A DNA stretch of 62,344 nucleotides, the filler included, from Aduncisulcus paluster (Eukaryota): NCBI GenBank assembly GCA_024181965.1. It is 7 parts of 7 records of this genome, joined end to end, with 100 filler letters (N's around TTAATTAATTAA, not from the genome) between each part and the next. Parts side by side here need not be neighbours in the genome. Positions count along the whole stretch, not along the records: positions 5,104 to 9,964 come from BQXS01011001.1; 6 more parts are not named here. One strand, given 5' to 3'. Of this stretch, positions 5,104-28,275 are shown one piece after another. The stretch's first letter is position 1. Every line of letters begins with the position of its first letter. Position numbers and translations under genes: made by a program. Below the pieces are notes generated by a model. The model saw nothing but the letters and a program-made list of their open reading frames with translations. It was not told the origin of the DNA and did not search any database.

Positions 5104-6170
5104 CTGTCACGAGATGTGCTTTCGACTTTCTTGAACTCATGCGGCATGGCAATATATAGAGCCATGTGATATAAAAAACCTGCATGTTGGTGGAATTGTC
5201 ACAGGGTTTTCTCAACTCATCGCAAAGTCGCCATTTGGAGCGCCCACTGCCATATCCCTTGTGATTGAATGGGATAAAAATACACTTTCTATCCGCTGCG
5301 AGATCATTTTATTCCTTGTACTGCACAGAGATTTGCAAGAAGGCTTCTTAATTGAATGAATGGATGTTTCGTGTCAAACGCCTTGAGCTTCTTTTCTAAA
5401 GACCATCCCTCGGAGCACAGGTCTATTTCTAATGTGAGATCTTCCCTTTTTTTATTATTTTTTTTTTGGTGTCGTGGAATTCACAGATACCGTTTCTAAT
5501 CATCTAATCGATTAATCGACCAACAAATGAAGCTTTGAAAGATGTCTTGTTGAGTTGGCCCACATCCAATTCATGATTAATATCAAAAGTGATTGGAGGA
5601 TGATTCCATTAATCCAGGAATCTCCAGCTCTCCATGACAAAGTAGTCTTGAACTTCAGTGACTACCGTTCGAATTGTATATTCGTTTCTATATAATTTGA
5701 CTTTGTTCAAACGGAGCTTCGTTTTGCAGTCCATATCAAAGCAGTAACAACTTATTACTATTCTTGAATTGTATTCCAGTTCATGCTGGTTTATGGGTTC
5801 TTTTGTTCTCTCCTTACCGTCCACCAATTGTTTCTATCCACAAATTGATGTCTGTTATATCTGTACTATCGACAAATCAAGTCCAATAATGGTGCAATTA
5901 GGTCGCTTCTTTTTATTCTCATCAGACAACTGTGAAACGTATTCTGTGAAGACAAGTTGTTCAAAAGAGTTTTCAAGCACAACCTTTGCTCACTCTTTAG
6001 AACAGTAATTGCACTGCAAATTGATGGTCAATGGTGGAATCGACGCAGAGACAAGATCAGTTCTTTCATGATACCGAATTAAAAAAGATTAAAAGTCTCA
6101 ATATCTGATCCTTTGAATCCTTTAATGGCTATTATTTTCCACTTTGTGCCCAAACCAAAGGAACTTCAAC
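5104..6170 (-). pseudogene. Decayed coding-like sequence of unknown origin (possibly a mobile-element relic)
   Basis: Minus-strand frames read like protein (e.g. KREDLTLEIDLCSEGWSLEKKLKAFDTKHPFIQLRSLLANLCAVQGIK*; the 5609-5827 ORF) but are interrupted by stops. GC content is higher than in neighbouring intergenic DNA. Confidence 0.35.
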
Positions 6171-6274
6171 CTTTGAACAAACGTGACGTTTGTTGAACAA
6201 TTTAAGGTTTATTTTCAAATAAAAATGAAAATACATGATGATTTTGTAATTATTTGTTTGATTTCTGAGATTAA

Positions 6275-6424
6275 CATTTTCCCCCCGAGGGCCCCTAGAT
6301 TCGGAGTCTCACACGACCGACAGAGAGCCTCTGTTTTCTCGTGTAAGCCAATTTCCTCCTAAGCGCTGGAACATTAATTGCACTGTGCCACTCTGAATAA
6401 AGTATTGATTTGGGGGAAATGACA
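6275..6424. other. GC-rich structured island with terminal inverted repeat (candidate ncRNA, solo LTR or MITE)
   Basis: CATTTTCCCCCC (6275) and GGGGGAAATG (6412-6421) are near-complementary. An internal hairpin at 6308-6347 pairs ACACGA/TCGTGT and ACAGAG/CTCTGT. AATAAA lies at 6396-6401. Confidence 0.4.
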
Positions 6425-6543
6425 CGGGAACTCATCTCCTTCTATCATGACTGTCCTATCCAATGTTCTTTAAGTACTACTTAGAACAATATACTATACT
6501 CTTAAACTACACTTTCCAAGTGATCAATATCCTACCATTAAAG

Positions 6544-8955
6544 TCAATTTGCATCAAAAGCTTCAAGAAGAGGAGTAGAATCTTCCCCTTTTTTACAGCA
6601 TGAGCAAAATTTTTCACGAAAAGAGATCGGACTAATGGAATATAGCACATATAGATAAATAATAACAATAACAATAACAACAATAACAACAAAAACGACA
6701 ACTAAAATGACTATGAATAGTGTAAGTTTGCACACACCTGAATTCATCGCATACGGAAATTCACATTTACAAGGCGCTGGGTCAGTGGGAGCATAAGGAT
6801 CATTATCAATACAATTACCATGATCACAATTATTGCACGATTTCGAACACCAGGTGCCAAGATATCCAGAATAACATTCACATTTAGCCGAATCCTCCGA
6901 TGAATCATACACACATGTTCCATGTTGTGCTGAACCATCGCCACACGTATAGAAAGAATAATTTGGGCTTGTGCTGATGTACATTGGGCATAAATATTGG
7001 CATGAATCCCCAACATATTGAGGAGCTTTTCCAGTAGGAATGTCGCACACGCACTCAACACTCATTTCGTCTCCATCCAATGGTTGACAGGTGCCATGAC
7101 CATTGCATTTGACGTTGTTATAAGTTGGACAGGAGGAACATGTGGGCCCAGCACTAACAGAATTACAGTCGCAATATACTTCGTCAGATTGTGAAGCATA
7201 TTCACACGTGCCTCGTCCTTGGCAAGTCTCACCATTCACGACAAGAGAAGAACAATCCTCATCGCAGTTGTCTCCACCACGACCTGACTCACAAGAACAC
7301 GTCACAAATGAGTTACCAGCTTCCATAACGGCAGAGGTATGCGGAAAATGCTCACAAAAACTACAACTAGAAGTATTATTGGTGGTTACACATTCTCCGG
7401 TATTGGTTTCAAGGTAATAGCGACTCCAGCAATCCACAACCCATTCAGACGGTGAGATTTCATGGCAACGCTGATGACGACCTGGGATATCTACACATGG
7501 ACATGATTGGGAGTCATAGGGTTCTATTATGGTGATATCGTGGAAATAATCAGTCAAATCACTTATGATGCTATCAATATCACAAAAATAATTGTTATTC
7601 AGATCAAGGGTAATTTTTGAGTTGGCTGAAAACATCTTTCCTGATATTAAAATGGATATATCAGCGATATAATTGTTGGAAATATCGAGATATGTAAGCT
7701 TAAATGGTTGAGTTTGAATATCAGAACTAGAAATAGGAGCAAAATCGAATATATCTTCAAGGCTTTTCAATCCGCAACCACTCACGGATAATGAAGTGAG
7801 TCCAAAATTATCAGTATTAACTAATAGTCTATCTGTGTAAACAACTTGTTTTGAAACTGCGTAAACAACTTGTTTTGAGAGTGTCCGAACAACGAATTGA
7901 TCATACTCACTGTTTTCAGTGGATCCACTCAGATCATATCCATCCAGTGTCAAACTACTCAGACGAGATGCATACTCAAGACCCTGAAGAGATGTGACCT
8001 GAGGAGGAATGACAAGGGAATCGGAAACAGTTGTTCGAATTGATGAGACGGCAATTATTCCATTTTCTTCAGCTATTCCAGGATATGTATCATTGATCAA
8101 AGCTCGAAGAGTGGAATCATGAATAGTGTAACATACCAATTGTTTGTTGACATAAGCAGACTTGGAAATGTCAGAACATCTAATCCTTGAAGAATTGGAA
8201 TCATAAACTTCATTTCGAATAACCGATGGACATAAGGCACTACCGTCACAATAATTATTATCCACATTAAGAGGGCAGTTGTTTGGCAAAATTCCCTTTT
8301 GTGAGGTATCGCGAGAAAAAAAAGGGAAAATGGACCCAACATATTCGAGATAAGAGTCGTCATCCTCAGATCGACAGACAGGGAGTTTAAATATAAAAAT
8401 AGATTTCAATCCCAAATTTCGATACAATACTGACACGTCGAAAATATTTGGATTGACTAGAGTCACTTGCAAAAGGCGAGTGAGAGATTGAAGGTCATTT
8501 AAATTATCGAAGTTACCATCTCCGGCTTCACTGTTGGTGCATGAAAGGGCCAAATCACAGAGCTGTGTCAGTTTAGAGAGTGATGAAATGTCACCAATCA
8601 TATTGCCAGTAATATCAATTGAACCAGAGCCAAAAAGATACTCAAGTCCGAACAAGTCCAAAGAAGTTCCAGTATGAACATAAAATTCTTTTGAAATGCT
8701 ATCGATATCATATTTTGTCAGATCACAATCCTCTTCAGATCCAATTAGTGAACACAATTCTTTCCTTATGGTATCCGAGGGGATATAGATTCTGTATGGA
8801 TCGGGATTGTTATTACAGATGACATATGGGATTGAAAACCAGATAATAAAACAAAGAATGACAAAAATCATTCTAGATGACTTGAAAAATGCAAGAAACT
8901 GTCGTATAATATGATTGATGGGATAAGCATTAATATTAGATCTTATAGATCGCAT
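6544..8955 (-). CDS. Type I membrane surface protein with leucine-rich repeats and Cys-rich EGF-like repeats
   Basis: N-terminal hydrophobic segment; LRR motifs (IGDISSLSKLTQL, VTSLQGLEYASRLSSLTL, LTYLDISNNYIADIS); EGF/tenascin-like units (CQGRGTC, CNGHGTC, CECYSGYLGTWC); a C-terminal Val/Ile-rich TM helix and a short Cys-containing cytoplasmic tail. Confidence 0.88.
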   Translation of the reverse strand: MRSIRSNINAYPINHIIRQFLAFFKSSRMIFVILCFIIWFSIPYVICNNNPDPYRIYIPSDTIRKELCSLIGSEEDCDLTKYDIDSISKEFYVHTGTSLDLFGLEYLFGSGSIDITGNMIGDISSLSKLTQLCDLALSCTNSEAGDGNFDNLNDLQSLTRLLQVTLVNPNIFDVSVLYRNLGLKSIFIFKLPVCRSEDDDSYLEYVGSIFPFFSRDTSQKGILPNNCPLNVDNNYCDGSALCPSVIRNEVYDSNSSRIRCSDISKSAYVNKQLVCYTIHDSTLRALINDTYPGIAEENGIIAVSSIRTTVSDSLVIPPQVTSLQGLEYASRLSSLTLDGYDLSGSTENSEYDQFVVRTLSKQVVYAVSKQVVYTDRLLVNTDNFGLTSLSVSGCGLKSLEDIFDFAPISSSDIQTQPFKLTYLDISNNYIADISILISGKMFSANSKITLDLNNNYFCDIDSIISDLTDYFHDITIIEPYDSQSCPCVDIPGRHQRCHEISPSEWVVDCWSRYYLETNTGECVTTNNTSSCSFCEHFPHTSAVMEAGNSFVTCSCESGRGGDNCDEDCSSLVVNGETCQGRGTCEYASQSDEVYCDCNSVSAGPTCSSCPTYNNVKCNGHGTCQPLDGDEMSVECVCDIPTGKAPQYVGDSCQYLCPMYISTSPNYSFYTCGDGSAQHGTCVYDSSEDSAKCECYSGYLGTWCSKSCNNCDHGNCIDNDPYAPTDPAPCKCEFPYAMNSGVCKLTLFIVILVVVFVVIVVIVIVIIYLYVLYSISPISFREKFCSCCKKGEDSTPLLEAFDAN

Positions 8956-9478
8956 TTGAAATAAATAAATAAATAAAATGAGGATATATAGTTGAAAAAC
9001 GGTTTAATTTCAACGAAATAGAGATTTTTCAGTCGTACCTCCAATAATACTACGAATAGAGCAAGTTGAATGTAAAATTCCATTCAAAGAACGTTAAAGT
9101 AATCGTATTTTTATTATTTTATCTACTTGGACCAACAAGGGCTTTTTTCTGTTTGAGAAGCTAGGTGTTGTTTAGAATGTAAGATTCCCATTATTCCATC
9201 GAATATAATTAAAATAGATTCTGATCACTTTAGTATTTAAAAGATACACCTGACATTATGCCTTTGGAAGAAGTTGATGTGCCTAAGGACCAAATGCGAT
9301 CATATTGATTTTGAAGAAATACGAGATGTTTATGATGATCCTTTTGCCGTTCAATTTGTAGTTTTCTTGCGAATAATTCTTGTGAAGATACCACGAAGAC
9401 GATTCCCCAGAGAACACCTATGGTTCAAGGAATTATGCAAGTTTTTTGGATCAAAATTAATTAATTATTTTATTGCAA

Positions 9479-9964
9479 TTATTTTCTTCTAAATTCCTTG
9501 GGTCTTTCTTCCCATTTACCCAGTATAAGAAATTTTCCCAAATGCGCTATGTTCATGGCAGCACTGACATCTCTATTGCTCACACGCCTGCATTTTTTGC
9601 ATCTTCTCTGCCTTAATAGTGGGATACCTTTCCGTTTTACAATTTCATGTTCCGAAAAGCAGCAGTATGACAGTTTGGATGTCCTATACTCGGGAACGAT
9701 AACAAAATTAAATCTAGATTTTAAAAAATCAATTCCCCATCTAAAGGGGGAGCCAATGTTCTTGTGGTCAGATGAGGGAAATGACCCATCCCCGATGCAT
9801 AGGATTGTTCGACGGCAATCATTTTTTTCCGCAAAATATCTAATTTTGTTTGCTAATTTTTGAACAATATGTAGCTTTTTTAGGTAGTTAGCTTTCCTTC
9901 TTTTCCTTTTGGTCATAGATTTGTCTATTTTCTCGAAATCTGTATATGTATCTAAATATAAACT
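9479..9964 (-). mobile_element. tnpB: Fanzor1-type (eukaryotic TnpB) RNA-guided endonuclease, C-terminal RuvC-II / Zn finger / RuvC-III part; N-terminus lost in the gap
   Basis: Motif order ILCIGDG...PEYRTSKLSYCC...RRCKKC...NRDVSAAMNI...RPKEFRR is the Fanzor1 C-terminal signature. The frame remains open upstream of the ATG at 9916 (SLYLDTYTDFEKIDKS) right up to the linker at 9965. Confidence 0.9.
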
Positions 9965-10065
9965 NNNNNNNNNNNNNNNNNNNNNNNNNNNNNNNNNNNN
10001 NNNNNNNNTTAATTAATTAANNNNNNNNNNNNNNNNNNNNNNNNNNNNNNNNNNNNNNNNNNNNC

Positions 10066-11730
10066 ATTGCTTTCCCATGGCTTTGTGATGGTGGAGTAAT
10101 TCTTGATAATAGGATGAAGGCGTTATTTAACGTCTCTGAAGAGGTTCGAAACCACATTACTCGTGCGAATGACTTTGCTCATTTGACAGGATTTGAAGAT
10201 ATCTTTGTTGTGCAGACAAATATTTTTTCCGGAGTGGCTGAGAAAGATGTTGTGTTGGCTGCTTTTTTGCTAATGGTTAATATCTATGAGAGATTGGGTC
10301 TGATCGTTGTACCCCACATTGTTCCTTTCAATCCGCAATGCATTGAGTGGGTATATCAAACTATTCTTCACTATTTGGAACCTTCAGTCGAAATGTGTGT
10401 ATGTGCAGTGTATTTCTGGAAATATATCTTCTCGCGAAACTATGAGAATGTTGTGAGGAAATATGCTGTGTTGCAACACTCTCATTGTGGTGTGGAACAT
10501 ATGGATTCAAGAACTGAAGAAGAAGAACACAGTGATTCCACATCTGAATTCGAGGAGATTCAGCAACCTGTTCAGCGCAGCATGTTTGATTATTCAGCTT
10601 TTTTGGGAGAAATTCAACAACAAACGGAACACTGTAAATCAGCTGAATATATGGAACCTTTGATTTCTGTGGATCCTAAAGATTTATTAAATGCTTATGG
10701 CAGTTGTTTTGTGTCCCTTCAGTGGATATCTTTCTTCCGAATGATTAGAAGATTCTATGATGATCCATTTCACCATTCTCCTGAGGCGGGACGAGTTGGA
10801 GAAGCGGGTATTGCTGCCTTGTTGATGAACTTGTTCAATTCTTTCAAAGCTAAAGGAACTCAATCCTCCGCTATGTTAATTGTAAGTGAATATGTTGCTT
10901 TCATGGTCAATGCTAAGCATCAAACGAATATTCTTGGAATGTTAATGAATTATCTATTTCACATGGATGGAGATTTGAATGTTTTGGTTATATCACAGCC
11001 TTCAATGATATTTAATTCGATTATTAACTGTCGAACTGATGACATGATGCTCTTGAAATCTTCCTCTTCCACCTTTTCTTCCGTTCGATCTTCTTTTTCG
11101 CTTTTGATGACAAAATTAAGATCTCTTGATTTCTCTCAATTTTCAAAGTATGCTGTTGCTGATTTGTGTGAAGTGATTACCGAATGTATTAAAAATGCAA
11201 AACAACATTGTCTCCAAACTTCCTTGGAGATCGAACAAACTATTAAGAAAAGAGATACGATTCCAAAACTTTTGGTTAAGTTTTTCGATCAGCAAGAATC
11301 CAAAGTTTTGCACCAACAGTTGTTGGACATCCGTTTTCTTGAAGAGTCGGTTATTCTTCCCTCTATTGGTTTCATAACTAAACTTGCCAGTGTGGTTGAT
11401 ATTTCTGACAATGCTCACCCTCTTGATTTGATGGTCAGTCATCATATTGGAGGAGATAATAATGAGTGTATAATTTGTTGTTGTGAGCCTAGAACTGTTG
11501 TTTTCCCTTGTGGTCACATGATTTGTTGTGAAGAATGTGCCAAATTATTGTCTCAAATGCAGCATCAATGTCCTTTATGTAAAAGGGCCTTCGAAAATCA
11601 TCAAATCATCAGGCCAAAATTCTTTAGGAGATCGAAATACGATTCTGTTGTGCACACAACGAAAACAATTGAGGATTTCCAACAAGCAATGGATACGCAA
11701 ACTGACATGATGGAAGAAGAAATCTTTTGA
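10066..11730 (+). CDS. C-terminal C3HC4 RING-finger protein (IAP/MGRN1-type RING, putative E3 ligase), probably 5'-truncated
   Basis: CIICCCEPRTVVFPCGHMICCEECAK...CPLC RING motif. The frame is open from 10066 (next to the linker) through the listed ATG at 10114. Confidence 0.82.
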   Translation: MAFPWLCDGGVILDNRMKALFNVSEEVRNHITRANDFAHLTGFEDIFVVQTNIFSGVAEKDVVLAAFLLMVNIYERLGLIVVPHIVPFNPQCIEWVYQTILHYLEPSVEMCVCAVYFWKYIFSRNYENVVRKYAVLQHSHCGVEHMDSRTEEEEHSDSTSEFEEIQQPVQRSMFDYSAFLGEIQQQTEHCKSAEYMEPLISVDPKDLLNAYGSCFVSLQWISFFRMIRRFYDDPFHHSPEAGRVGEAGIAALLMNLFNSFKAKGTQSSAMLIVSEYVAFMVNAKHQTNILGMLMNYLFHMDGDLNVLVISQPSMIFNSIINCRTDDMMLLKSSSSTFSSVRSSFSLLMTKLRSLDFSQFSKYAVADLCEVITECIKNAKQHCLQTSLEIEQTIKKRDTIPKLLVKFFDQQESKVLHQQLLDIRFLEESVILPSIGFITKLASVVDISDNAHPLDLMVSHHIGGDNNECIICCCEPRTVVFPCGHMICCEECAKLLSQMQHQCPLCKRAFENHQIIRPKFFRRSKYDSVVHTTKTIEDFQQAMDTQTDMMEEEIF

Positions 11731-12333
11731 TTTGTAAATTTACTCGGCAGTTTACCCTTTATATTAAAGTTTATCATAAGAAAGTCTTTTGTGATAAACC
11801 ATCATTGGCTTTTGAGATGATGTGTATTACTCATTGAGTAAATAAATATTTTTATCTAATTCAACTTGAATATTTCGATTTGGATCAATCGAGGAATCTT
11901 GACAATTCAATCTGGATATAGGTACATGTCATGGGTAAAAAGACTTCTGGATATCCATTATTAATTCATTTATACCTGTTTTATGGAATATTCAATTATT
12001 TTGAAATGGGTTATTCTATTTTTAGATTTTCTATTTTTAGAATTCAGACTTTTGAATTGGATTATTTTGCCTGCAAACAACATAAAAAAGCAGAATTACA
12101 AAGATTTTTTTTGGGTTTTGTTCTGTTTTCTCTTGTTCATATGTTGAGTCGGTTAATTCAAGTTTTTCATGATTTTTACGAGCCTTTTATGGTATAGAGG
12201 TCTCTATAATTGAGGTCAATACCAGATATGGTGACCCTTACACCACTATAATACCATCCTTTCGAAGAATTTATTCTTGCGTCTGATGAGAAAAAGTTTC
12301 AATAAATGATCATCACATCTTCACGTCAATTAA

Positions 12334-15300
12334 TTACGCTGTTTGTTTTCGAGAAAATAAGGTTGAAAATTCAAGTAATTGAGTTTTTAAAGGTTCCAAA
12401 AGACCGAATGGTTCTAACCAGGCTTTATCAATAACAAATCCAATAAATTGCATTCCTATATCCATATTTTTGAGTTGAATTGCATAAAATCGAACCAATA
12501 AGGTCTGGATACCGTGAATAATAAGAATAAAAGCACATGACATTCCAATAAACCAAGCTAAAAATTGGATGGTATTATTCACGGCAGAATTAGCAAATTC
12601 AAACTGTCGAATGGCATAATGAGTTGAAAAATGGGCTTCAATAGTTACTTGGTTCAACAAAGCAACAACATTCTCTCTGAACTCTGCCTCTTCAAAGTTT
12701 TCATTTTCAATTACGGCAATAAGTTCTCTACTAGTGTGAATGAATTGGGTGATGATCCTTGAACTGACAGTTTCATCAACCTCAGACACAGACAAAATAC
12801 TCGTTTCATGAAGCCAATTGTCACATTGAGTTGTATAAAACTCTGGACACGTAAAATCAACGCCATCTGTCGAATTATGAATGATAGCTGAATGTAATTC
12901 AATTTCGTCGAGACGATCTGAGAGGAAACCAATTGTATTTGGATCTGGATGGGGGGAAGCCAAATTGTTTAATCCGGAATACAAATTCTCCAAGAAAGTG
13001 AACAAATAGTTTGTAAAATCAGAAGAATCAATCGACCTCACAAATCCCTTCTTGATCCTTGTTGAACAAATCAAGAACACAAAGAAGAGAGAAGTGGTAA
13101 TTATCATGATGAGAATAAACATTTTAAGAGAGAATCTCTTCAATTTCATCAAAGATAAGGTAGGTGGGAGTGATATCTGATCCGCTCGATCTTGAATAAG
13201 CTTGTCAATCCGTTTTTTCTTCTCAAATTTTGACAATGACAGATCGTTAATATAAACGATATCTTCTTCAACTTCATCCTCATCGTTATCTTCAACGTAA
13301 GCCTCTGATTCATGAGGTTGCTCACTGGCCAATGGAGAACTAACGTGAGAAACACTCTCTTTTTTCCTTGATGTCTTCAACCACCCTGCTTTCTTGATAG
13401 AAGTCTCTGGTTCAGAGGAAGTATCGATGACAAACCTCTTCAGGTGAAGACATTGTTGCTGTATGAGTCTATTTTCTTCAGGGAAGTACACAGCCCTCAC
13501 CTTTTCATTGGATTTGCTTCGATTGGATGCCATTTTTATGTCCATAGCATCTGGAGACTTATCGATATGAATCATCAAAGTCTTGGGACTCACGACAGAT
13601 TGGACTTCACCATCCTCACGCATTGGAGAGATGCTCCCCGATTTCTTCGATGTTGGGTTGAGAGAGGCAGAATGCTGTAGCAAACGGGGAGCATGAGATA
13701 CCGATGATGTCAACCCTGCCACTTGCCACATCCGTTGAGATATTTTCTCTAACATCTCATGAGTCTTAAATCTGGTCTTTATAACGATATACACAAGCAT
13801 AGCAAGAGTAATCACTGTAAATATCAGGGCATATTGACATGTGGATAGGAATACATATGTGACACTATTGGGGAGGAATTGATTCGAGTAGGAGAAGAAA
13901 ATAACATGTTGCATAACTAAATTCTGAATATCCATCAAATTGTATAAATCGGATGAGATGGCAGAAGTGATTTCAGGTGAGAGGAAACTAAATGAATCAA
14001 AATCGTTAATGCCCAAATGAGCAATATTTTCAAATATGCCACACACAGGAACAGCATCCATCGAACCTTCACGTTCTTCAACGGTAATGCAGAATTTGTT
14101 AATGAATGAAATGAAGATCTGCGAATAGAAAGGAAGGTTTGGATAAAGAGAAAGGATCATATTGGTATCAGTAAGATCCCCATTATCTGAAAACATCACC
14201 GAACTTAAAAACTCATCAGAAACATTACTCCAACTCAAATCAAGACGCAGAGTATCAACCATATCTCGAGACAAGGAGGACATGAGTGTGGTGGGGAATG
14301 AAAAGGCCTCAAACACACTGAGAGTAATTCCATTGTAATCGCTTGAGATTTCTTGGGATTCATCATTGATGTACACCTCAAGATCAATAGCAGCAATCCA
14401 ACCTTCAATGATCTTCACCATACCATGTGAAAGGATGATGAGATCACGATAACGATCGACAGGTGTCAAGGAACGTTGTTCAGCGGCAGAATAATTCCGA
14501 GAACTAAGATAAAGGGAAATAATAACAGAGAAAAAGATAAAAACAAGTCCAAAGATCCAAGTCACAAGGAAAACGCCACATTTTGGCCAAACGAAATACT
14601 TGTCGGTCAAAGCATTATTGAGTGATAATACAAATGTGTGTATTTTAGTGTGGTTTTTGCTATCGTCGGAGAGATCTTGGGAATTTGGCCGTGATAACAA
14701 ATCAAATTGAACAGTTTTATCAATTCTCCTCAGGGAGTTCTTCTCCCCCGTGTACATTAAGAGAGCAATGGTAGAAAAAGAAAAAATGGCAAAAAGCGTA
14801 ACAAAGAATGAGAACCCACTCATGTTCGAGGAATCAGAATAGAGTTGTGAAGTGTCAGATGAATCCTCGCTTGAGGCTGAAGTGTCATCCATTGTAGACC
14901 AAGAACATCCCGGTAATGAGATCATATCTTGTGAAATAATCGTCTTGAGATCATCAGAGGTAGTGAATGTGGCAGGCGGGAAAAGGAGGATCCCGGACGA
15001 ATCAGAGGAATCAGTCCCAATCATTTCATTGAACTCAGAGGCTTCCATAATCAAAGATTTGGCCAGACTTATGAGAGATTCAGTGTTGCTTCGTATTTCA
15101 GATAAGAAATCGAGTGTGAGTTCATCATATTTCTCAAGTCTATTTATAGTCTCAACATTCTCCTCAAAAGTACTCAAGAACTGACTGAACACTGAGTGGG
15201 CTGTCGTTTTAGTATGTTCAAAATAATTGATTGAAGCATCCAGTCTGCTGACTTGCTCTCTAAAACTCTGGACAAACATATCTGGTTGGGCATAGAAATT

Positions 15301-18300
15301 TGTTCTAAAGAAGAAATACATTGAGAGATTTATGGGTAAGCCAAGATCCTGAGGCATATATCCATCGGCTGCAGAGAACACATTGTGATAGTTCTCCAAG
15401 AAAGAGAGGGATCCCACTTCATAACCGTCAGAGAGGACATCAATGAAGTCATAACCCTCCGAAATCGAAAGAGGAGTACTTAAAGAGTATATTGTAGCGT
15501 AATAGAGAAGAGATGACATCGAATTCAAGGTATTAGCAGCTGAATATACATCAAGAGAGCCCAATAATTGGGTTTGACGGTGTGAGTGGGCAACGGATAT
15601 GTAGAACCAAACCCAAGGAATTATAATAAATCCAATAAGCAAAGAAACGAGCAATATAAAGCTTGACATCTGTGCTCGATTCTTAAAACGTTGTATATTG
15701 TTTGCAGCAATCTTACGAACTTGGTTAATGACCTGTGGAGCAGTGGAATTGAGAAGAGAAGCGCTTTTCTTGGCAATAATCTTGATAGATTCACTCGAAT
15801 CCGTCCATTCGATTCCCTGAGCAGCATCAAATCTTCCGCTATTCAGTGATTCTCGAGTTTTGAAATAATTGAGTCTGGCAGTTACACCTCGTTTTAATGT
15901 CCTAGCACCTGAGGGTGAAGATTCGGCGACCGGTATATCTCCTTCATCAATTCCATCAATATTTATCTTTGGGAGATCATCAGAACCGGTATCAAAACCG
16001 TCAACAATATCGGTGGGAACCGAAGCTGTTCTCATCACACTCATATTGAGAATATGTTGTGGCAATTTGGGTGAAGAAAGATCAGGATCGGAAGAGTGGG
16101 AGAGTTCTTGCATGATTTCGCACTGGAAAGAGCCATCTCCAACTTTATCTCCATCATCCAACTGAGCTTTGTCAGTACTATCCTTAATCTCTTCCTCTTC
16201 ATCTTCCTCCTCTTCAGAATACTCAAGCACTAAATGTTGCATTTTGGGGGTTGGTTCAATGAAAGCGGAGTGCATCTGCGATGAATCTCCTTCTTGGCCC
16301 GCAGGAGAATGGGATGAAGAAGAAACAAAATGATCCTTCCGGAATTCGACCATGGCTGTCGATTCTGTAGATTCCTTCCCAGATTGACTTGAACGCTTTG
16401 TATGGTTTTCACGTGCTGAAGATCCTTCTTCAGACTCAGTGGGGAGAGAATATTCGTTGCCTTCAGAGTCATGCACAGTGGATAGAGAAGAGATCAGACT
16501 TCTGTTACTTTGAATGGCACCTGCATGAGCAGATCCAGCTGACACACGTCTCCCGCTGGTATAATCGGACGATATAGTGTCTTCAGAAGAAGGTGGGATA
16601 ATTGCGTGGGGATTTCCAAGTTCATTGCGGAAGATCTTGGCACCATCATCTAATTCAACGATACTGGCATTCCTGCCGGTTTGAACCGACCGAATACGTC
16701 CAGATTTAGCGTCTAGAATAAGCTGAATAGGTGATACATACCGGTTTGATGGGTTTGGAACCGATGAAGTGGAAGAGACTGATGATAGAGAGATTCCAAC
16801 ATGATCCGATTCTGAGTGATCAATTGAAGAACTTGAACTATCATTGTCAGATGAGGATTGATGCTGCAATGGTGGGATGGCAAGGTTCAAAACATCAGCA
16901 GACTGAACTTCTCCGGCAACTCTATCCTTTTGTCCATCAGAGTGGCCTTCATGTGAAGATTCCGAATGTTCTTTCTCACTTGTTTGATTGAAGCCAAAAT
17001 GATTATAATTTCCCAATATTTTGTTTAAATCTAATCCAGTTCTTCCGGAAGTATATTTAGCAGCAATATCAGGACCCATTTCATCCGTATCGATGGTACT
17101 CGTTGAGCTATCGTTTGTAGATGTTGTTGAATCTTTTCCTCCAAACTTGGCAGAACATATTTCATGCTCTATGGCATCAATGTCCTGAACACCGAGTAAC
17201 TTGAGATATTCTTCAAGTCGATGCACTCTGGCTTCTTCTTTTTCAACCTTTTCGCTGAGACGATCGACCCTCTTCAAAAGTTTCTCAATTTGAACTGTAG
17301 AAATAGCAGAGTTGAGATGATCGTTATAGTAAAACAAAGAGAATGTATCAGAATGGACGTCAATACTACTTGTAATTGGAACAACTTCCTTATAGGCCTT
17401 CTGTAGCTCTCCCGTCACTTCAGGAGGGATCAAGGACAATGTTCCCATTATCAATCTGGCCTTCTTCTCAACTTTACATAGGATTGAGTAGTGTCGCTTG
17501 CCAAAACAGATGATTTGCAGGATCATAATGAAGACATACAACACAGCGACTCCAAATACCATACCATCAGCGGCTCCACCAATGACAAATCCCTCGATCG
17601 GAATATTGACGGATGAGAGCATATCTTTCAACTTATCCACAACAACCTTCATGGAGGATCCCAGCTGAATAATCTCATTAACTTGGGTAGAAGACAACGA
17701 GAAAGTGTTATCCTCATCCAAATTGTCTCGAATAACAGAGAAAACATATCCGTAACGAAGAGAAGTGAGGAAGTATGGGTATGCAAGCTCGAACAGTGTA
17801 AATCCATCTGAGGTACCCCCCTCAAGAGAAGGATGAGGAGGAGAGGAGATATGGACTGGGTTATAACGGTTTGACAGAGAACTCACAGATCCCATATATA
17901 TCAAATTCTTTAAGAGATCATTAGAATAGTGAAGCATATTGAAGGAATTGTCGGTTAAGAATGATTCCATCTCATCTCCATTGGGGAATTTAGGAGAACA
18001 ATTTCTACCGAGGGTAGTTCCTTGGTAGTATGACTCTGAGAGAGTTGGGAGAAGAGTGGAATCGTCTGTATCATCATTGAGAGAAAACAATGATTTATAG
18101 CCTCTTTCTACCTTGGATTGTGGGCGTCTATAATCATAGAGGGTGGAAGAATCAGTTCCAATGGATGAACCATTGTCCACAAAGATGTTTAGACTCAGGG
18201 GAGACTCAGTGACAACAGGAACAGTCTCCAATCGACATGAAGCACTTGCATCAGCCCAATAACCAATGGAGAAGAACTTAGGTTGTAGTCTTTGAATAAT

Positions 18301-18612
18301 CTGAATGTCACTCCCCGAAAAACCAATGTTCTCTGAGAAGGGCCAGTATTTTAATGGAATGTCATCCATAGCTAAAGAAAATATAGCATTACCAAAGGAA
18401 TATTGGGAAGGAATTTCTCCCAAAGCAGAGAAATTATCGCTGAACAAATCAAGGAAATGGAACTGATAGAGGTATTCGTTCTCGGGCTGAGAATTTAACT
18501 GAGCCAGTGATAAAAACACATCATTCATAATGCCCAAAATAACACCCACAGAAGATGACAGCTGTTCTGAGAGAGAGTGTGCCAAGGTCCAACGGTTCAC
18601 CCTGTTGCTCAA
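12334..18612 (-). CDS. Giant multi-pass membrane protein, C-terminal segment (probably continuous with 18521-28275)
   Basis: 2092-aa open frame listed from a TTG codon, with several hydrophobic helices separated by long Ser-rich loops. It overlaps the upstream ORF by 92 nt in a +1 frame. Confidence 0.8.
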   Translation of the reverse strand: MSNRVNRWTLAHSLSEQLSSSVGVILGIMNDVFLSLAQLNSQPENEYLYQFHFLDLFSDNFSALGEIPSQYSFGNAIFSLAMDDIPLKYWPFSENIGFSGSDIQIIQRLQPKFFSIGYWADASASCRLETVPVVTESPLSLNIFVDNGSSIGTDSSTLYDYRRPQSKVERGYKSLFSLNDDTDDSTLLPTLSESYYQGTTLGRNCSPKFPNGDEMESFLTDNSFNMLHYSNDLLKNLIYMGSVSSLSNRYNPVHISSPPHPSLEGGTSDGFTLFELAYPYFLTSLRYGYVFSVIRDNLDEDNTFSLSSTQVNEIIQLGSSMKVVVDKLKDMLSSVNIPIEGFVIGGAADGMVFGVAVLYVFIMILQIICFGKRHYSILCKVEKKARLIMGTLSLIPPEVTGELQKAYKEVVPITSSIDVHSDTFSLFYYNDHLNSAISTVQIEKLLKRVDRLSEKVEKEEARVHRLEEYLKLLGVQDIDAIEHEICSAKFGGKDSTTSTNDSSTSTIDTDEMGPDIAAKYTSGRTGLDLNKILGNYNHFGFNQTSEKEHSESSHEGHSDGQKDRVAGEVQSADVLNLAIPPLQHQSSSDNDSSSSSIDHSESDHVGISLSSVSSTSSVPNPSNRYVSPIQLILDAKSGRIRSVQTGRNASIVELDDGAKIFRNELGNPHAIIPPSSEDTISSDYTSGRRVSAGSAHAGAIQSNRSLISSLSTVHDSEGNEYSLPTESEEGSSARENHTKRSSQSGKESTESTAMVEFRKDHFVSSSSHSPAGQEGDSSQMHSAFIEPTPKMQHLVLEYSEEEEDEEEEIKDSTDKAQLDDGDKVGDGSFQCEIMQELSHSSDPDLSSPKLPQHILNMSVMRTASVPTDIVDGFDTGSDDLPKINIDGIDEGDIPVAESSPSGARTLKRGVTARLNYFKTRESLNSGRFDAAQGIEWTDSSESIKIIAKKSASLLNSTAPQVINQVRKIAANNIQRFKNRAQMSSFILLVSLLIGFIIIPWVWFYISVAHSHRQTQLLGSLDVYSAANTLNSMSSLLYYATIYSLSTPLSISEGYDFIDVLSDGYEVGSLSFLENYHNVFSAADGYMPQDLGLPINLSMYFFFRTNFYAQPDMFVQSFREQVSRLDASINYFEHTKTTAHSVFSQFLSTFEENVETINRLEKYDELTLDFLSEIRSNTESLISLAKSLIMEASEFNEMIGTDSSDSSGILLFPPATFTTSDDLKTIISQDMISLPGCSWSTMDDTSASSEDSSDTSQLYSDSSNMSGFSFFVTLFAIFSFSTIALLMYTGEKNSLRRIDKTVQFDLLSRPNSQDLSDDSKNHTKIHTFVLSLNNALTDKYFVWPKCGVFLVTWIFGLVFIFFSVIISLYLSSRNYSAAEQRSLTPVDRYRDLIILSHGMVKIIEGWIAAIDLEVYINDESQEISSDYNGITLSVFEAFSFPTTLMSSLSRDMVDTLRLDLSWSNVSDEFLSSVMFSDNGDLTDTNMILSLYPNLPFYSQIFISFINKFCITVEEREGSMDAVPVCGIFENIAHLGINDFDSFSFLSPEITSAISSDLYNLMDIQNLVMQHVIFFSYSNQFLPNSVTYVFLSTCQYALIFTVITLAMLVYIVIKTRFKTHEMLEKISQRMWQVAGLTSSVSHAPRLLQHSASLNPTSKKSGSISPMREDGEVQSVVSPKTLMIHIDKSPDAMDIKMASNRSKSNEKVRAVYFPEENRLIQQQCLHLKRFVIDTSSEPETSIKKAGWLKTSRKKESVSHVSSPLASEQPHESEAYVEDNDEDEVEEDIVYINDLSLSKFEKKKRIDKLIQDRADQISLPPTLSLMKLKRFSLKMFILIMIITTSLFFVFLICSTRIKKGFVRSIDSSDFTNYLFTFLENLYSGLNNLASPHPDPNTIGFLSDRLDEIELHSAIIHNSTDGVDFTCPEFYTTQCDNWLHETSILSVSEVDETVSSRIITQFIHTSRELIAVIENENFEEAEFRENVVALLNQVTIEAHFSTHYAIRQFEFANSAVNNTIQFLAWFIGMSCAFILIIHGIQTLLVRFYAIQLKNMDIGMQFIGFVIDKAWLEPFGLLEPLKTQLLEFSTLFSRKQTA

Positions 18613-21600
18613 TGCTATAATTGTTTGCCACGATGAGGTTAGTTGAGTATAGAGTCTCTAACACAATAAGAGAAGATATGGTCTCGGCTTGACTAACACC
18701 AACGAATATCTCAACACTCTTCAGCACAAGGACACATATCATCAGACTACATACAAGGATAATAAGAGTCATGCAAACAGTGATACACAGGAATGTCGTG
18801 TGCTCTTTTTGGATGTGAATGGTAGCATTTGGGTGCAGAGAGGGGAATGTATTGGAAAGAATGTGAGGGAAAGCAGCAAGTTGCATGCGTGAAAGATGGG
18901 TTTCTTGCGATCCAGGGACAATCTCAAGCATATCATCAAAGGGGTTCGTCTGATTAGAAATTGTAGTGCCAGATTGACGGGTAGAGCTTGAGTAATTTAG
19001 AGAACTCTGACCGACTCCATTGTATTCGTTGAATTGCTTGACAGCATCAAAAGGAATGATATAGTTAATTGGAACATCCTGAAGGGCTGTTTCTCGAAGT
19101 ATTTTGAGGAGTTCTTCTCTATCCATGCCACTATCAGCACTTCGACGAATCAAAGACGCAGAACTCCTTGTCTTATTGAGGATGTCCTGCTCAGGAGTTT
19201 CTCTTTCCTCGCTAATTTCATCATCACGGGGCGATCTGAGTGTATTTGTCATGATATGATCCTTCGAAGGTGAACTATCACCTCTCTTGTTATCACTCTC
19301 AGAGACACCATCCACAATAAAGATATTGGGCGGATGTTTCCTATCTTTCACGAAAGATTTAGTTTCACTTGTGGAACTATCACTCTTGCTAAAATTCTTG
19401 AACTCAGGAGGGGACTGCCGCCCAAGTTTCAACTGTTGAGAGTACTGTTTCGTTGCCTGATGAATCAAACGAAGACCAACGCTATTAGATTCCTCAGAAC
19501 CGCTGAGATGACGCATTTGAGAGGATTCATCGGCACTATTGGCATCTAAGATAAGAGGCTCTTTATCTTTGGAAGAGGTTGGAGGGGAGCTTGCTTCCTC
19601 TCCGATCTTGAGACGTTGATTCATGACTGTCGAAAGTTGGGGGATATATCCGCGTTCCATCCGTTTTTTCAACTTTTCTTCCTCATCCATGAAAGGATCA
19701 AGAGAACATGAGAACAATGGTGGTTGCAGAGCTGCCAAAGATTCCTTATGGATACTCTCAATAATATCACGGGGCGTCATAGAGGATGAGGTGAACTTGC
19801 GTGAATTGTTCTTGGGAGACATGTCGGTCGAGGGAATAAGCTCGGATGGCTCAGGAGTATCTCGAACTCTAGTTACACTCAACGAAGGTGGGGGAACCCA
19901 ACACCGATCAAAGAAAAATCTAGCCATGTTCTGTGCATTCCGCTGAACAATTTCTTTGTAACACCCAGATAGAGTCTTCTCTGCACTGACTTCATCATCG
20001 CTGTCTGACGATTCGGTATCCTCTTCTTTCATAGCAGCCTCAAGACGATCAAGATCAGTTGAGTAATCTTTTCTCATGTGATCCATTCCACTCATACTTG
20101 AACTGAGATTTGGAATGTCAAGGTGAGTATCACTCCCAAAGAAATTAAAAGTGGAGCCGCCTTTGTCAGCATCTTCCGTATCAGAACGGGATTGTCCAGT
20201 CGACCCAGGATGGGATGTAGGTCCTTCAACATGAATGATACTAGGGTTTCTATTACGATATGTCATGGGATAGCTTGAAGAGGAAGAGTTGCTGGTTGAC
20301 CTTGAAGAGCTACGGGCACTTGAGTCTTTTGTCACACCAGGAACTTCTAACTGGGAGCGAGCAGATGCACTCTCACCAGTGATCTCAGTAGTGGGACCAA
20401 TCTTCTTCTTCTCTCCCACAACAATGGAATCTTTCCCACTGCCCACTCCAAAAGGTGCCGCAGGTTGCATAGAATCAATGAATGACGGCGGTGTATGATC
20501 ATATTGTCGACTCTGATGAGACGTTTGAGGAATCATGTCATGTCTGCTACTGGAAGCTGTGTGAAACATTCTGTATGATTGAAGGGTATTAATGGAATTC
20601 AAGGAAGGAGTTCCTGAAGCCATCGGAGGCAACTGGGAATGAATATGTGTTGAATGGGCCTTAGAAGATGAATTCAGGAATGGGATCGACGGTTGATGCC
20701 CATGATCTCCAGGAACAGGGACATCACCAATACCTTCGGTAGTTGCCGAGATCGATGGAATACCTTCGGTAGTTCCCGAGATCGATGGAATTTCCACATG
20801 TCCACTTTCGCTCAGTCTTCTTCCACTTTCTCTCCCTTCCATTTCATCAGACTCAAGGGCAGGAGTGAGTCGGCTGACAGATGTGAAGGGCTTATACATG
20901 GAAGATGTTGGCAAAGACATTCGTCTTAATTGTTTTTCGGCTCGGCGGAAGACGGAATTATAATCAGCCGAATCCTTTCTCTCAATATCACTCACAACAG
21001 ATTCGGGATCGAACTGTTCGGAAGATGATCTGTTGTTTTGACTGTTCATACTTGCACGTCTGACATCATGCTCATGCTCACCCTCTGTTGTACTGCCCCT
21101 TTCACTTGCGTGGGTTGTGGAAATGTCCAAAAGAGAAGAATTACTCCTCGGGGAAGAAGCAATATCAAATGTCATCTTTCCAACATTGGATAATATCAAT
21201 TCAGGGAGAACAATTTCCCTATCTTCTTGCTCTTTCCTTCGTTTTTCAATCATATACGAAACCATTTGCCTCAATTTCTCTCTTCTATGCTTCAAGCGAG
21301 TACATTCATCGGTCAAATCACGTTCTTCCTTTGCAGCAGGCTTCTTTTGACCCATCAATTCTGTGAAAGAGGTTTGTATTTGGGCTCCTCTGCTTTGAGT
21401 AATGAGCAAGGCACAATGGACAAAAAACCCCTGTGACAATGACGGATTTAGGCAGACATTTAGAGCAAATCCTCCAGCTAGCGATAAGACACCGAGTTTG
21501 AATGAGTATTTTGAATTCAAAGCAACCATCCTTTCGAGGGTATATCTCGTTTGAAGATATTTCTTGAAAGATAGGTCAAACACAGTGTCAATAATATTTG

Positions 21601-24378
21601 AGGAAGCCTGAGTGTAAGTCTGGAGACGAGAAAGGTTCGGTTTAATGTCTTCAACATTCAATGGCTCATTCTTATACTTACTTTTTGACAGGTTAGCGAC
21701 GCTATTCCTTCCCAATTTCGAGTATTCCCCTTCGATTTTCTGTGATGTCAATGTGAGTGAATGTAACAACTCGAAAAAGACTGATCGTTGGTGCAAACAG
21801 CGCATGTAACTTTTTCTGGCCTTTTGGAATTGCTTTTTAATGTTATTTTTCCATTGAACGTCAGATACATCGATAGATTCAAACTCAAGGTCAAAGACTG
21901 TCTTGGGAATTGTCGGTTTGAAAGAAGATTCTTTGTAAGAGACCCCGAGACTTGGTCTTCTCTTCCCTGGATCGGCAAGGTCTTGTGTTTGAGAATTGTG
22001 CAAGTTCGAACTTTGGCCTACCATCGAGGACTCCACCCTTGAATCATCCCCCGGATCAAACCCAAAGGCATCGATGGAGTATTTCCGCTCGTCATGTTTG
22101 GGTGGAACGTGTGAAGATGTCGAAGAGGAAGAAGAGGAGGAAGAACCATTAGTCGTTGAGGCATGTGAATATGAATTATTCACCTGAGAGGAGTTATAAC
22201 TGACCTGAGAGGAAGCTTGTGAGCTGTGAGTTGGGAAAGATTGGGTATTAATAACTGTTGCAGACCCACCTTCCTCAAGCAATCCTTTTACGCTCTCAAA
22301 GCTATGGGATACTGGTGTTGTACTCTTCTTCTCATCGGAAAGACTATAATCTTTCGATTTTGATGTCTTGTATTCGGTCGAATTATTCACAGAGGCTGCA
22401 AAGTTTGAGGATATAGAATTTCCATGTTTAGGTCTCTCGGTATCCTCTTCTACACTCTGAATTGTACTTAAACTCTCTGCATCATCCATGCTCGCATCTC
22501 TCTTCTTCATATCACTTGTTTGCTCTCCTGATGCCAGTTCGGTATCTTGTGAGATATTAGAAATGGCAGAAGTACTCAATTTGGCCTTGTCCTCTGGTTT
22601 AAGGATATGAGAATGGGCCACACTAAGCCTGCGGCTTGCACCACCTGATGAGGTTCCAAAGGGCTGCCCATCTTTTGCTGAATGCTGTCCATCTTTGGTG
22701 TTTTTCTCAATGGCTTTCAATGTATAAATGATGTTTCTATTCATAAACAACTCAGCGATATGACATATCTCATGGGCAATGTTATGACGGAACTGGAAGA
22801 GCGAGTATTTCCTCAATGTTGAGTAGTTTCGCTCAATACATCGAATGACAGTGCGTCTGGATGACTTTGAGAAGTTGATGAAGGGAGAATACTCGCTAAT
22901 CGAAGAATTGGCTCGATTACTGTGCATGGAATCGATATCGTCTTGTAAATACAAATCACCGACCTTTTTGAAGGAAAACGAGTTGTAATAAATTTGGGAG
23001 AGTTTAGCTCGAGATATGTCATACTCGTTGATTGGAATAAGCATCCCGTTATCCTTTTTGAACCTATCGAGTCGTTTGGTGAAAGAAAAGATTGAAGAAG
23101 ATTCTAATCCAGAATCGAACCGTTTCACAAATTCTAAGGAGGAACTCGCCAACACTGAAGGAAATATGATTCGATTTGTCGGTAGGATACGATATTGCTC
23201 GTCTTCCTCCGACATGGATAATTGAGTGCGATCTAGTCTATTCCCAAGGAAAGAGTCAATGCAATTAAGTGTCAAACAGCTCCAATGAAGTGTCATATCT
23301 GCCAAAACCTCAGATATCGAGTGAGAAAGAATGAACCGAATGAGGAATATTGTAAAATGAGGTGAAAAATGTAAACCCATTCTATCCATATTCAAAGGAA
23401 TGTCCATATCCATGAACCGTGGAAGATCCGTGAAGAATGAGTCTTCCTCAGAATCGAATTCCTTTGGAGAGTATCGAGAGGAGTGGGAGAACTCCTGTCT
23501 GTCCGAATATGAAGAATAAGAATATGGATACGAATAAGAATACTCAGAGCTATTCTGTCCAGACGATCGATATTGCTGAACACGGGGCTGGGATAGGAAA
23601 TCTCTCACTGATCTTTCCCGCGAGATAACAGCATCTCGTTCAGAGGAGAGCTGGCGTTCAACGATTCCCAGGAAAGGACGTGTGAATATCGAATTGCATT
23701 GATAAAATGACGTCGGGAATATCATATCGACGAATTCCTGAGGGATATTGAGGTTCTTGGCCATGTGATTGGTTCCAGAATTGGACATATTATACGAATA
23801 TGTGAGAGGAGTGGTGTCTGTGACTGCAAGACTCGTAGAAATGGAAGAATGGGGTATTCCATCAGTAGTTTCAGGGTTAGTTCCTTGAGCTCGAGCAGTA
23901 GACGCCTGGGTATTTGACGAATCATCGACAACAAATTCACTAGATCTTGTGCTACTGCTGGTGACAGGAAGAAAAGCCTTCGCGTATTCCTCTGTCATTT
24001 GGTCAGCACGAGGAGCTGATTGAGCCTCCTCCTTAGATCTACGAGACTCGCTTGAGGTCGACTTTCCCTTTACACCGGATGAAGATGTGGAAGAACTTGC
24101 AATTGACAACTGAAACTCATCCGAATGGACACGAGAGAGAGTGTATGCACTATCGGCTGGCGTGGATCCAGTATCTTCTCCCATATCGACATGGGAGACG
24201 GGAGTGGATGGAGTTGGATTCAGAAAGTTGGAGAGTTTGGCCTGTTGTGAATTCATATTCCGAGGCATTGACTCCAAAAGCTGAGCAATTGTTGTTTTGT
24301 TAGCAATGATGCTTTCTCTCCTCCCAGCTTCTTCAAGTCTTTGATCGTGGAACATAGGATTATTCAACCGAGGATCAG
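18521..24378 (-). CDS. Giant membrane protein, middle segment (Ser-rich, TM helix near its end)
   Basis: 1948-aa ORF whose first ~56 aa are identical to the end of the 24375-28199 ORF, because 179 bp are duplicated across the 20-N gap. Confidence 0.8.
20729..20791. repeat. 30-bp in-frame tandem duplication (IPSISGTTEG / IPSISATTEG)
   Basis: AATACCTTCGGTAGTT(G/C)CCGAGATCGATGG occurs twice with one mismatch. Confidence 0.85.
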
Positions 24379-24577
24379 NNNNNNNNNNNNNNNNNNNNGG
24401 GAGTGGATGGAGTTGGATTCAGAAAGTTGGAGAGTTTGGCCTGTTGTGAATTCATATTCCGAGGCATTGACTCCAAAAGCTGAGCAATTGTTGTTTTGTT
24501 AGCAATGATGCTTTCTCTCCTCCCAGCTTCTTCAAGTCTTTGATCGTGGAACATAGGATTATTCAACCGAGGATCAG
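24200..24577. repeat. Assembly artefact: identical 179-bp direct duplicate (24200-24378 = 24399-24577) around a 20-N gap
   Basis: Identical sequence lies on both sides of the Ns; collapsing it restores a single reading frame. Confidence 0.9.
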
Positions 24578-27500: not shown

Positions 27501-28275
27501 TGGCAAATCAAACACCACATTAAACAGATAAAACCACATGTGTCTCGTTGAGAAGCACAAAACAAACCGAATCAAACAATGGAATATCTTGAGTTGGGGG
27601 AGCATAGATTCAGCCTTACGTTCCTGTTCCAGAAGCTTGGGCGACAACAGGGATCCATTACCGTTGAGAAATGAGTTTTGGAGCAAGGTTTGAATGTTTG
27701 AGAATTTGTTCAATTCCCCAGGTAAAGCAGAATTCTTCTTTGAAATATGTAACAAAGACTTGGCTGTCGGTGCGTGTGATAGCCTAGAAAAGAATTGAGA
27801 TGAGGAGTGTCGGGAATGCGATTGTTTGGTGGAAGAAGGGAGGAATGAGCCAAGTTGCTTCTTTGAAGATGGAACAGAATTGAATGAAAATGCCCGACGA
27901 TGAGCACCTGACTGACTCTTAGTGCTAGAGGACCTTTGATGGATCGACGAGGACGATTGGGAGGGTTGGAGAGTCTCCTTACTAGTACTGCTATACCGAC
28001 CGCTACCTTGTGTAACCTTCTGAACTTGGGACCTGGAAGAAGAGGAGGGAGAGCGAGTTGTTCTGCTTGTACTGCCATGGGTGCCATGTTCATATCTATG
28101 CCCTTTGTGCCTGTGTTTCTTGCTTTTCCTGGTTTTTTCCAATGTTGCAGCAGCGAGAGATGCAATGGAAGCATTATGCGTCACTGGAGCTGCACCCACA
28201 CACTGTACAATGGTTGCAGCAGCTATCGTGGTTGCGGTCTGTTGTTGTTGGTCGAAGGAAAGCCCAGATTTGTCC
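24399..28275 (-). CDS. Giant membrane protein, N-terminal-side segment (TM cluster plus Ser/His-rich regions), open into the contig linker
   Basis: 1274-aa ORF listed from a GTG codon, but the frame is open up to the linker (DKSGLSFDQQQQTATTIAAATIVQCVGAAPV...). Several hydrophobic helices lie around aa 200-350. Confidence 0.8.

Follow-up and report, generated by a model that had tools for sequence, protein, structure and literature searches.

Fanzor1 proteins belong to the eukaryotic branch of the TnpB RNA-guided endonucleases and have already been recorded in protists, fungi, animals, plants and giant viruses (PMC10432273, PMC3627910). The TnpB/Fanzor superfamily is typified by a C-terminal motif, [TS]-[TS]-x-x-[C4 zinc finger]-x(5,50)-RD, described by Bao and Jurka in 2013, who also noted an 'extremely conserved' pair of G and E in Fanzor1 (PMC3627910). 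A rearranged active site, with Gly at the canonical glutamate position and an alternative glutamate, is reported to be common to Fanzor1, Fanzor2 and the 'TnpB2/pro-Fanzor' TnpBs (PMC10530073, PMC11832414, PMC10711439), and the hallmarks of Fanzor1 are placed in the N-terminal part, as kinked helices in the REC2 domain and a 'TDG' motif in the WED domain (PMC10711439). In SpuFz1, carried by the Spu-1 elements of Spizellomyces punctatus, E541 and D606 are described as metal-coordinating catalytic residues, and the guide RNA is made in a short tail after the stop codon and reads on 14-15 nt into the flank (PMC10432273). The right-end RNAs of other Fanzor1 elements include an inverted repeat and extend about 15 nt past the target-site duplication (PMC10711439). 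Here, a stretch of 62,344 nucleotides (the window) attributed to Aduncisulcus paluster (GenBank assembly GCA_024181965.1), a free-living, microaerophilic fornicate of the Metamonada (PMC9933649), was analysed around an open frame that is cut by a contig end. This frame is very probably the 3' quarter of a Fanzor1 gene. The fuller reading is also likely, namely that a repetitive mobile element of the free-living fornicate's nuclear genome carries the gene, which was cut by the assembly.

The window is a chain of short contigs held apart by six linkers of 100 bases, each composed of N44, a 12-base six-frame stop linker and N44, so that being neighbours across a linker is no evidence of adjacency. 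The contig carrying the frame covers 5104-9964. On its minus strand, from 9964 to 9482, a stop-free frame of 161 sense codons remains open into the assembly linker, whose N run (9965-10008) directly adjoins it, and at the other side the frame ends with TAA. This frame had been described in an initial annotation of the same DNA, and the motifs quoted there were all found (IGDG, PEYRTSK, CC, CKKC, NRDVSAAMNI, RPKEFRRK just before the stop, and a KRKRRK basic patch), as were the codons given for the glutamate and the aspartate (Table 1). Numbering from an ATG at 9916 was given up: relatives can be aligned with the preceding 16 residues as well, so this is an internal methionine and any count from it is arbitrary. 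Residues are numbered here from the first visible one (protein P0001), by which G58, E92 and D132 correspond to the former G42, E76 and D116. The KRKRRK patch is real, but its place is not the protein N-terminus; alignment, fold model and profile match all put it within a basic helix that is conserved in the RuvC region of relatives.

Table 1. Coordinates of the Fanzor1-family locus and its features in the window.
Feature	Position	Strand	Remarks
Fanzor1-family gene, 3' part, C-terminal 161 codons	9482..9964	-	RuvC helical hairpin, RuvC-II region, zinc ribbon, RuvC-III, RP..F
G58 codon, invariant Gly ending strand 54-58	9791..9793	-	invariant in alignments A1 and A3, nearly invariant in A2
E92 codon, alternative RuvC-II glutamate in PEYRTSK	9689..9691	-	invariant in A1, A2 and A3
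Zinc-ribbon cysteines C101, C102 ... C122, C125	9590..9664	-	C102, C122 and C125 invariant in A1
D132 codon, RuvC-III Asp of NRD	9569..9571	-	invariant in A1, A2 and A3
C-terminal motif R154-P155-x-x-F158	9491..9505	-	RPxxFxR in relatives; aligned with the C-termini of SpuFz1 and PpFz1
Stop codon TAA	9479..9481	-	position agrees with the natural C-termini of relatives
Tail after the stop, putative right element end with part of a putative guide-RNA scaffold	9418..9478	-	repeat boundary; RNA role proposed by analogy with SpuFz1
Candidate stem, 9-bp perfect inverted repeat (arms 9492-9500 and 9426-9434)	9426..9500	-	stop codon and most of the tail lie between its arms
Assembly linker, N44 + 12-base six-frame stop linker + N44	9965..10064	.	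contig break truncating the gene

Pfam family PF07282 (Cas12f1-like TNB domain) matched residues 87-139 of the 161-residue fragment with 31.1 bits against a gathering score of 26.3 (E 2.8e-7). The NCBIfam model guided_TnpB was matched over the last 52 of its 389 positions (E 2.8e-7), and its 30.2 bits stayed under the full-length cut-off of 100, as expected for a fragment. The superfamily motif was present as T95-S96-K-L, the zinc ribbon and R131-D132 five residues past C125, with one variation: Ser replaces the first Cys of the first knuckle, and two residues further on there is a pair of adjacent Cys. A phmmer search of 1.84 billion cluster representatives, which stand for about 15 billion predicted proteins, returned 45 proteins at a whole-library E<=1e-3, and the nearest relatives were 28-45% identical over 100-155 residues. 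With a best E of only 2.2e-7, the Fanzor family of the window is without a sampled near relative among these about 15 billion proteins. Many matches measured 540-704 aa and were aligned through their C-terminal end, and PF07282 was located at the C-terminus in nine of the ten longer matches scanned. The named relatives were eukaryotic: KAI3635164.1 from Amoeboaphelidium protococcarum, KAJ1950349.1 from Linderina macrospora and KAL0248933.1 from Eukaryota sp. GEM-RC1. Environmental and eukaryotic relatives (P0002-P0046) had a common consensus with the fragment, ..G.G.F.SS.RG..P...DEFRTSK.C..C...WNRD.NAA.NI...RP..F.R. Two matches were rejected as relatives, P0003, a 5421-aa mucin-like protein, being a spurious, cysteine-rich chance match and P0009, also cysteine-rich and aligned over seven short stretches, probably another chance match.

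Two of the three catalytic residues had been claimed to be visible and intact, and this was borne out by the alignments. E92 falls in a column aligned with SpuFz1 E541 (residue 935 of chain 8gkh_P), and D132 in one aligned with SpuFz1 D606 (residue 1000 of that chain); the conversion uses an MBP-fusion offset of 394 derived here from the alignments. G58 aligns with the G of the SpuFz1 MGDW motif, and its equivalence to the position of the canonical RuvC-II Glu in ordinary TnpB is taken from the literature (PMC10530073, PMC3627910). The fragment thus displays an alternative glutamate (E92) together with Gly at the canonical position (G58). G58, E92, C102, C122, C125, R131, D132, A135 and N138 were all invariant in alignment A1. 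The first zinc knuckle (9659-9670, minus strand) reads S-Y-C-C, whereas most relatives have C-x-x-C. A similarly shifted form, T-Y-C-C, was found in P0040 (Eukaryota sp. GEM-RC1) and in P0016, and judging from these sequences it may mark a subgroup.

The rearranged site had been presented as a trait of Fanzor1. It is indeed present in the fragment, but it is not specific to Fanzor1, being described also from Fanzor2 and the 'TnpB2/pro-Fanzor' TnpBs in the literature cited above, and our family call was therefore based on profile and fold comparisons rather than on this motif. The same shared arrangement is what could make the fragment a piece of Fanzor2 or of a prokaryote-type TnpB with an alternative glutamate, all the more as the REC2 and WED TDG hallmarks of Fanzor1 fall in the absent part of the gene. 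The comparisons leave this alternative with an almost negligible likelihood. To avoid circularity, the fragment was left out of alignment A3, which was built from 11 full-length relatives of 378-704 aa. P0001 alone was matched to the A3 profile with an hhalign probability of 99.7 (E 2.1e-26) at template columns 437-569 of 587, and the visible part is therefore the last quarter of the protein. Against the structures of the PDB, the A3 profile matched SpuFz1 at 3.2e-30, PpFz1 at 1.5e-20, GtFz1 at 1.3e-14, the Fanzor2 protein ApmFz2 at 5.1e-12 and ISDra2 TnpB at 2.8e-5. A profile restricted to the C-terminal part (185 positions, from the fragment and 19 short relatives) matched PpFz1 at 9.1e-20, SpuFz1 at 7.1e-19, GtFz1 at 5.4e-14, ApmFz2 at 1.3e-9 and TnpB at about 6e-6. 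With both profiles, the three Fanzor1 structures scored 5 to 18 orders of magnitude above ApmFz2 or TnpB, and their matches spanned nearly the whole C-terminal profile, and with it the whole fragment, whereas those of TnpB and Cas12f were limited to the part with the zinc ribbon and RuvC-III. The fold model agreed: an AlphaFold2 model of the fragment (pLDDT 87.7, pTM 0.75) searched with Foldseek against the PDB had PpFz and SpuFz chains in the top five places, followed by Cas12f, with ISDra2 TnpB ranking 21st and ApmFz2 29th. The A3 consensus upstream of the fragment region holds TDGV and G-x-DPG, the latter being the motif of the RuvC-I Asp; in the 11 full-length relatives the T of the first motif was nearly invariant and its G invariant, and the D and G of DPG were invariant or nearly so. 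Fanzor2 proteins are compact and TnpB-like and belong to IS607-type elements with a serine-recombinase TnpA; this compact format was not seen in the relatives either, given their 540-704 aa. The Fanzor1 assignment of the initial annotation is thus favoured over Fanzor2, TnpB and Cas12f by profiles and folds alike.

Among characterised systems, SpuFz1 (PDB 8GKH, 9CEU-9CEZ; PMC10432273, PMC3627910) has the same C-terminal architecture and motifs as the fragment. The G and E of the pair stand 34 residues apart in the fragment, against 36 for SpuFz1, both proteins have TS-x-x before the zinc ribbon, NRD and the terminal RP..F, and E92 and D132 pair with E541 and D606 as described above. Likenesses extend to the elements. 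Both form multicopy families with diverged but conserved copies, and the tail after the stop codon is short in both, 61 nt here and about 80 nt in Spu-1 (PMC10432273). The two proteins differ in that their identity is about 16-20% in fold alignments, in the zinc-ribbon insertions of SpuFz1 that the fragment does not have, in the S-Y-C-C knuckle of the fragment, and in their hosts, a chytrid fungus on the one hand and a metamonad on the other. PpFz1 of Parasitella parasitica, which had the best C-terminal profile score, was also the best fold match (E 6.6e-6, TM 0.53-0.57 when normalised to the query, 22-24% identity); PpFz1 and GtFz1 of Guillardia theta (PDB 9CF0-3, 9CER-T) have long insertions between the zinc-ribbon cysteines, unlike the fragment. 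ApmFz2 (mimivirus L79; PDB 9B0L) and ISDra2 TnpB (8EXA, 8H1J) have the RuvC/zinc-ribbon core and the RD motif in common with the fragment, and the shifted glutamate is also reported from Fanzor2 (PMC11832414). Besides their much weaker profile scores and, for TnpB, the restricted match region, both differ from the fragment in that their matches stop short of the RP..F profile positions, that of ApmFz2 at position 167 of 185.

Copy number was estimated from two sequencing runs of one sample, available as Logan contigs, one of DNA and a second (X2) which was guessed to be RNA. In the DNA run, the flanking LRR-EGF gene is covered by one contig of 2877 bases (6326-9202) with a word depth of 1282, and the 188-base unitig 9260-9447 has a depth of 1315. 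The Fanzor part falls apart into short unitigs (about 125-190 bases), alongside which variant unitigs occur. Two of the short unitigs, 9498-9623 and 9688-9812, have depths of about 5000 each, and over 9342-9964 the summed word depth, which is no true copy number, amounts to 11,300-17,500, or 9-14 times that of the flank. We read this depth as several to about ten copies, which have diverged, and the multicopy nature suggested in the initial annotation was thus supported. The boundary of the repeated element could also be located. With words of 31 letters, the end of the single-copy unitig 9260-9447 at 9447 means that the 30-mer 9418-9447 is common to several paths, and a contig of run X2 matched the locus from 9418 onward after 194 unrelated letters. 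From these two observations the repeated element ends at 9417/9418, 61 nt past the stop codon. Fanzor1 genes are carried by eukaryotic transposons with inverted repeats and a target duplication, often together with a transposase of Mariner, hAT, Helitron, Sola or another type. No transposase was found on the contig 5104-9964, where one element end is visible, and a repeat search of this contig gave no convincing inverted or direct repeat marking the element ends. The visible end was also compared with Helitron, hAT and Mariner termini and matched none of them, and this speculative idea was dropped.

The position of this boundary bears on the truncation of the gene. The published A. paluster draft is a short-read assembly of 25,863 contigs (N50 4.6 kb) whose libraries had fragments of about 500 bp (PMC9933649), and the contig enters the repeat by 547 bp (9418 to 9964), which is about one library fragment. 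A break within the gene is what would be expected of a short-read assembler anchored in unique sequence, which walks only about 550 bp from the unique flank into a repeat; the gene would then have been cut by assembly and not by biology. Full-length copies would presumably exist elsewhere in the genome. On the other contigs of the window, neither a second copy nor an N-terminal piece of the gene was found by tblastn of the 45 relatives, by a six-frame profile search or by blastn self-comparison.

The copies could nevertheless be inactive. In that case the locus would be a Fanzor1-derived relic or a domesticated remnant, this copy or the whole family having no working nuclease, and the copy at this locus might truly be 5'-truncated. 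Such a relic would be in keeping with the visibility of the last quarter only, with a codon use that is poor relative to host genes and with the non-canonical S-Y-C-C knuckle. It is nonetheless unlikely, as the frame is open right up to the linker, the visible part keeps every invariant residue, and the break lies at the distance into the repeat that an assembly artefact would give with fragments of about 500 bp (PMC9933649). Divergence between copies argues in the same direction. A variant contig over 9491-9624 displayed 12 differences in 134 bases, eight of them at third codon positions; five of its ten changed codons were synonymous and five conservative (K/R, R/K, S/C, M/L, I/M), no stop was introduced, and C122, C125, R131, D132, A135 and N138 were retained. 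In this small sample, the pattern is that of paralogues that would be under purifying selection rather than of decaying relics.

If the family is functional, its mode of action can be proposed by analogy with the described Fanzor1 systems. The visible part of the gene encodes the second half of the split RuvC domain with the rearranged site (Gly at the old Glu position, E92 and D132), together with the zinc ribbon and a Fanzor1-type C-terminus. The product of a full-length copy would take up a guide RNA made from the element's 3' end. We propose that this RNA would consist of the last codons and the 61-nt tail, the scaffold including 9478..9418, and that it would continue some 15-20 nt into the flank, the guide starting at 9417. 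The ribonucleoprotein would cut matching double-stranded DNA beside a short adjacent motif, and such cutting probably helps the element persist, so that the function suggested by the sequence would be RNA-guided DNA cutting serving a transposon. The candidate stem of Table 1 might belong to the scaffold. An 83-nt fold around it had a z of -2.03, with 7 of 200 shuffles as stable, but as one of five windows this is a weak hint, and three further windows at the 3' end were non-significant (123 nt, z +0.35; 101 nt, z -0.18; 61 nt, z -0.32). A common G-to-A variant at 9475 would convert an inner C-G pair of the candidate stem into U-G. By this analogy, we put the chances that at least one copy in the genome is an active RNA-guided nuclease at about even.

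The host had been given as an anaerobic protist, which the rest of the window corroborates. Uninterrupted eukaryotic genes are found throughout, encoding RING, protein kinase, RapGAP, Kelch, RRM, histone-fold and MatE proteins and a DEAD-box helicase C-terminus, and in the part that the two share, the helicase fragment (56867-57796) shows 100% identity to an NCBI protein of Aduncisulcus paluster. On these sequences, the host is eukaryotic and probably the fornicate A. paluster itself. The Fanzor fragment could still be foreign to the chromosomes of the protist, as a giant virus, a virus-derived insert or DNA of a co-cultured organism joined to the LRR-EGF gene by the assembler. Fanzor1 is reported as frequent in giant viruses (PMC10432273, PMC3627910), food bacteria were present in the culture (PMC9933649), the codon use is atypical, and the junction is formally bridged by no Logan contig. 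This scenario is nevertheless very improbable. The single-copy unitig 9260-9447 already includes the last 30 bases of the element, the contig of the window joins flank and Fanzor part, and identical unitigs occur in the same run at about four times the depth of the host flank, as for a nuclear repeat. The GC content (0.36) and the GC content at third codon positions (0.35, 33rd percentile of host segments) are inside the host range, and a bacterial source is made unlikely by the report that no convincing prokaryotic Fanzor1 was found (PMC10711439). For a Fanzor1 gene on a mobile element of the nuclear genome, the atypical codon use would fit the mobile nature of the element and also a fairly recent arrival, for instance via a virus.

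Several observations weigh against this reading as a whole. Some 430-540 N-terminal residues, including the WED and REC domains and the RuvC-I Asp, are outside the window. The nearest relatives are as distant as stated above (28-45% identity), none reaching E 1e-10, at least one of the 45 phmmer matches (the 5421-aa mucin-like protein) is spurious, a word-based search for longer proteins related to the fragment gave none, and phmmer of the single fragment against the PDB returned nothing at E<=10, structures being reached by profiles only. Being inside a repeat, the sequence of the fragment may be a mosaic of copies, and the limit on the summed depth applies here as well. Among 156 host segments of equal length, the fragment ranks at the 2nd percentile in synonymous codon use and at the 8th in GC, and is thus poorly adapted to the host. 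With words of 31 letters, the unique flank and the open frame are not joined by any Logan contig, and the linkage of the frame to a host gene rests on the contig of the assembly, as unitigs bridge the repeat edge by at most 30 letters. Concerning the RNA, a structure over 223 nt had no thermodynamic support (z +0.46), and a search of 5104-9964 against Rfam was empty at E<=1.

Fanzor1 is a family already characterised by structures and biochemistry and reported from many groups, so that the present observations change no concept; their value is taxonomic and practical, by adding a host lineage to a known family. The 2013 survey lists seven eukaryotic host groups and no excavates (PMC3627910). 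No report of Fanzor from metamonads was found in the literature searched; the supplementary host tables of the 2023 surveys, outside that search, may list such hosts. To have a divergent multicopy family, apparently under constraint, in a free-living relative of Giardia would widen the known host range and give a group that has few genetic tools a candidate native nuclease. It is possible, but on balance doubtful, that the genome holds a live Fanzor1 family of about ten diverged copies under coding constraint, which would be the first OMEGA-type system reported from Metamonada. Such a family would have an altered first zinc knuckle and an unusually compact right end, the 61 nt after the stop implying that the guide-RNA scaffold would overlap the last codons. 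Were it also active at the growth temperature of the host and in AT-rich DNA, it might serve as a native handle for genome editing in fornicates, whose genetic manipulation is difficult.

Further features of the contig were recorded. Its other end (5104-6081) is a far more abundant repeat, with a summed depth of 35,000-195,000 in the DNA run against about 1,280 in the unique middle, numerous variant unitigs and internal skips at 5353-5878 and 5797-5907; it has no frame above 86 codons, no Rfam match and no second copy in the window. Between the end of the Fanzor element and the LRR-EGF gene, about 150 bases (9143-9295) are common to another locus. Contigs of run X2 match these bases only, with unrelated letters on both sides, those before 9143 having the capacity to encode a RING-like Cys/His pattern, and in the DNA run the stretch has a variant unitig (9173-9289; four differences and one gap) and about twice the depth of the flank. 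This segment may be what is left of a RING-finger gene that was duplicated. The LRR-EGF protein itself (803 aa) contains leucine-rich stretches, cysteine-rich EGF-like ones and a membrane span at its C-terminus, and matches no Pfam family. One contig of run X2 covers exactly its gene plus 46 bases before the ATG (6028-9001), whereas the DNA-run contig continues to 9202, which hints weakly that a transcript may start near 9001.

Elsewhere in the window, three long open frames of 2092, 1948 and 1274 codons lie head to tail on the minus strand at 12334-28199, the last two parted only by a 20-N gap, and they may constitute one giant gene of more than 5000 codons. A bacterial-type threonine synthase is encoded at 41701-42927 (plus strand), its best matches being from Anaerolineae (about 53% identity), with 52% identity to that of the fornicate Kipferlia bialata; from these identities, it looks like an old lateral gene transfer common to fornicates.

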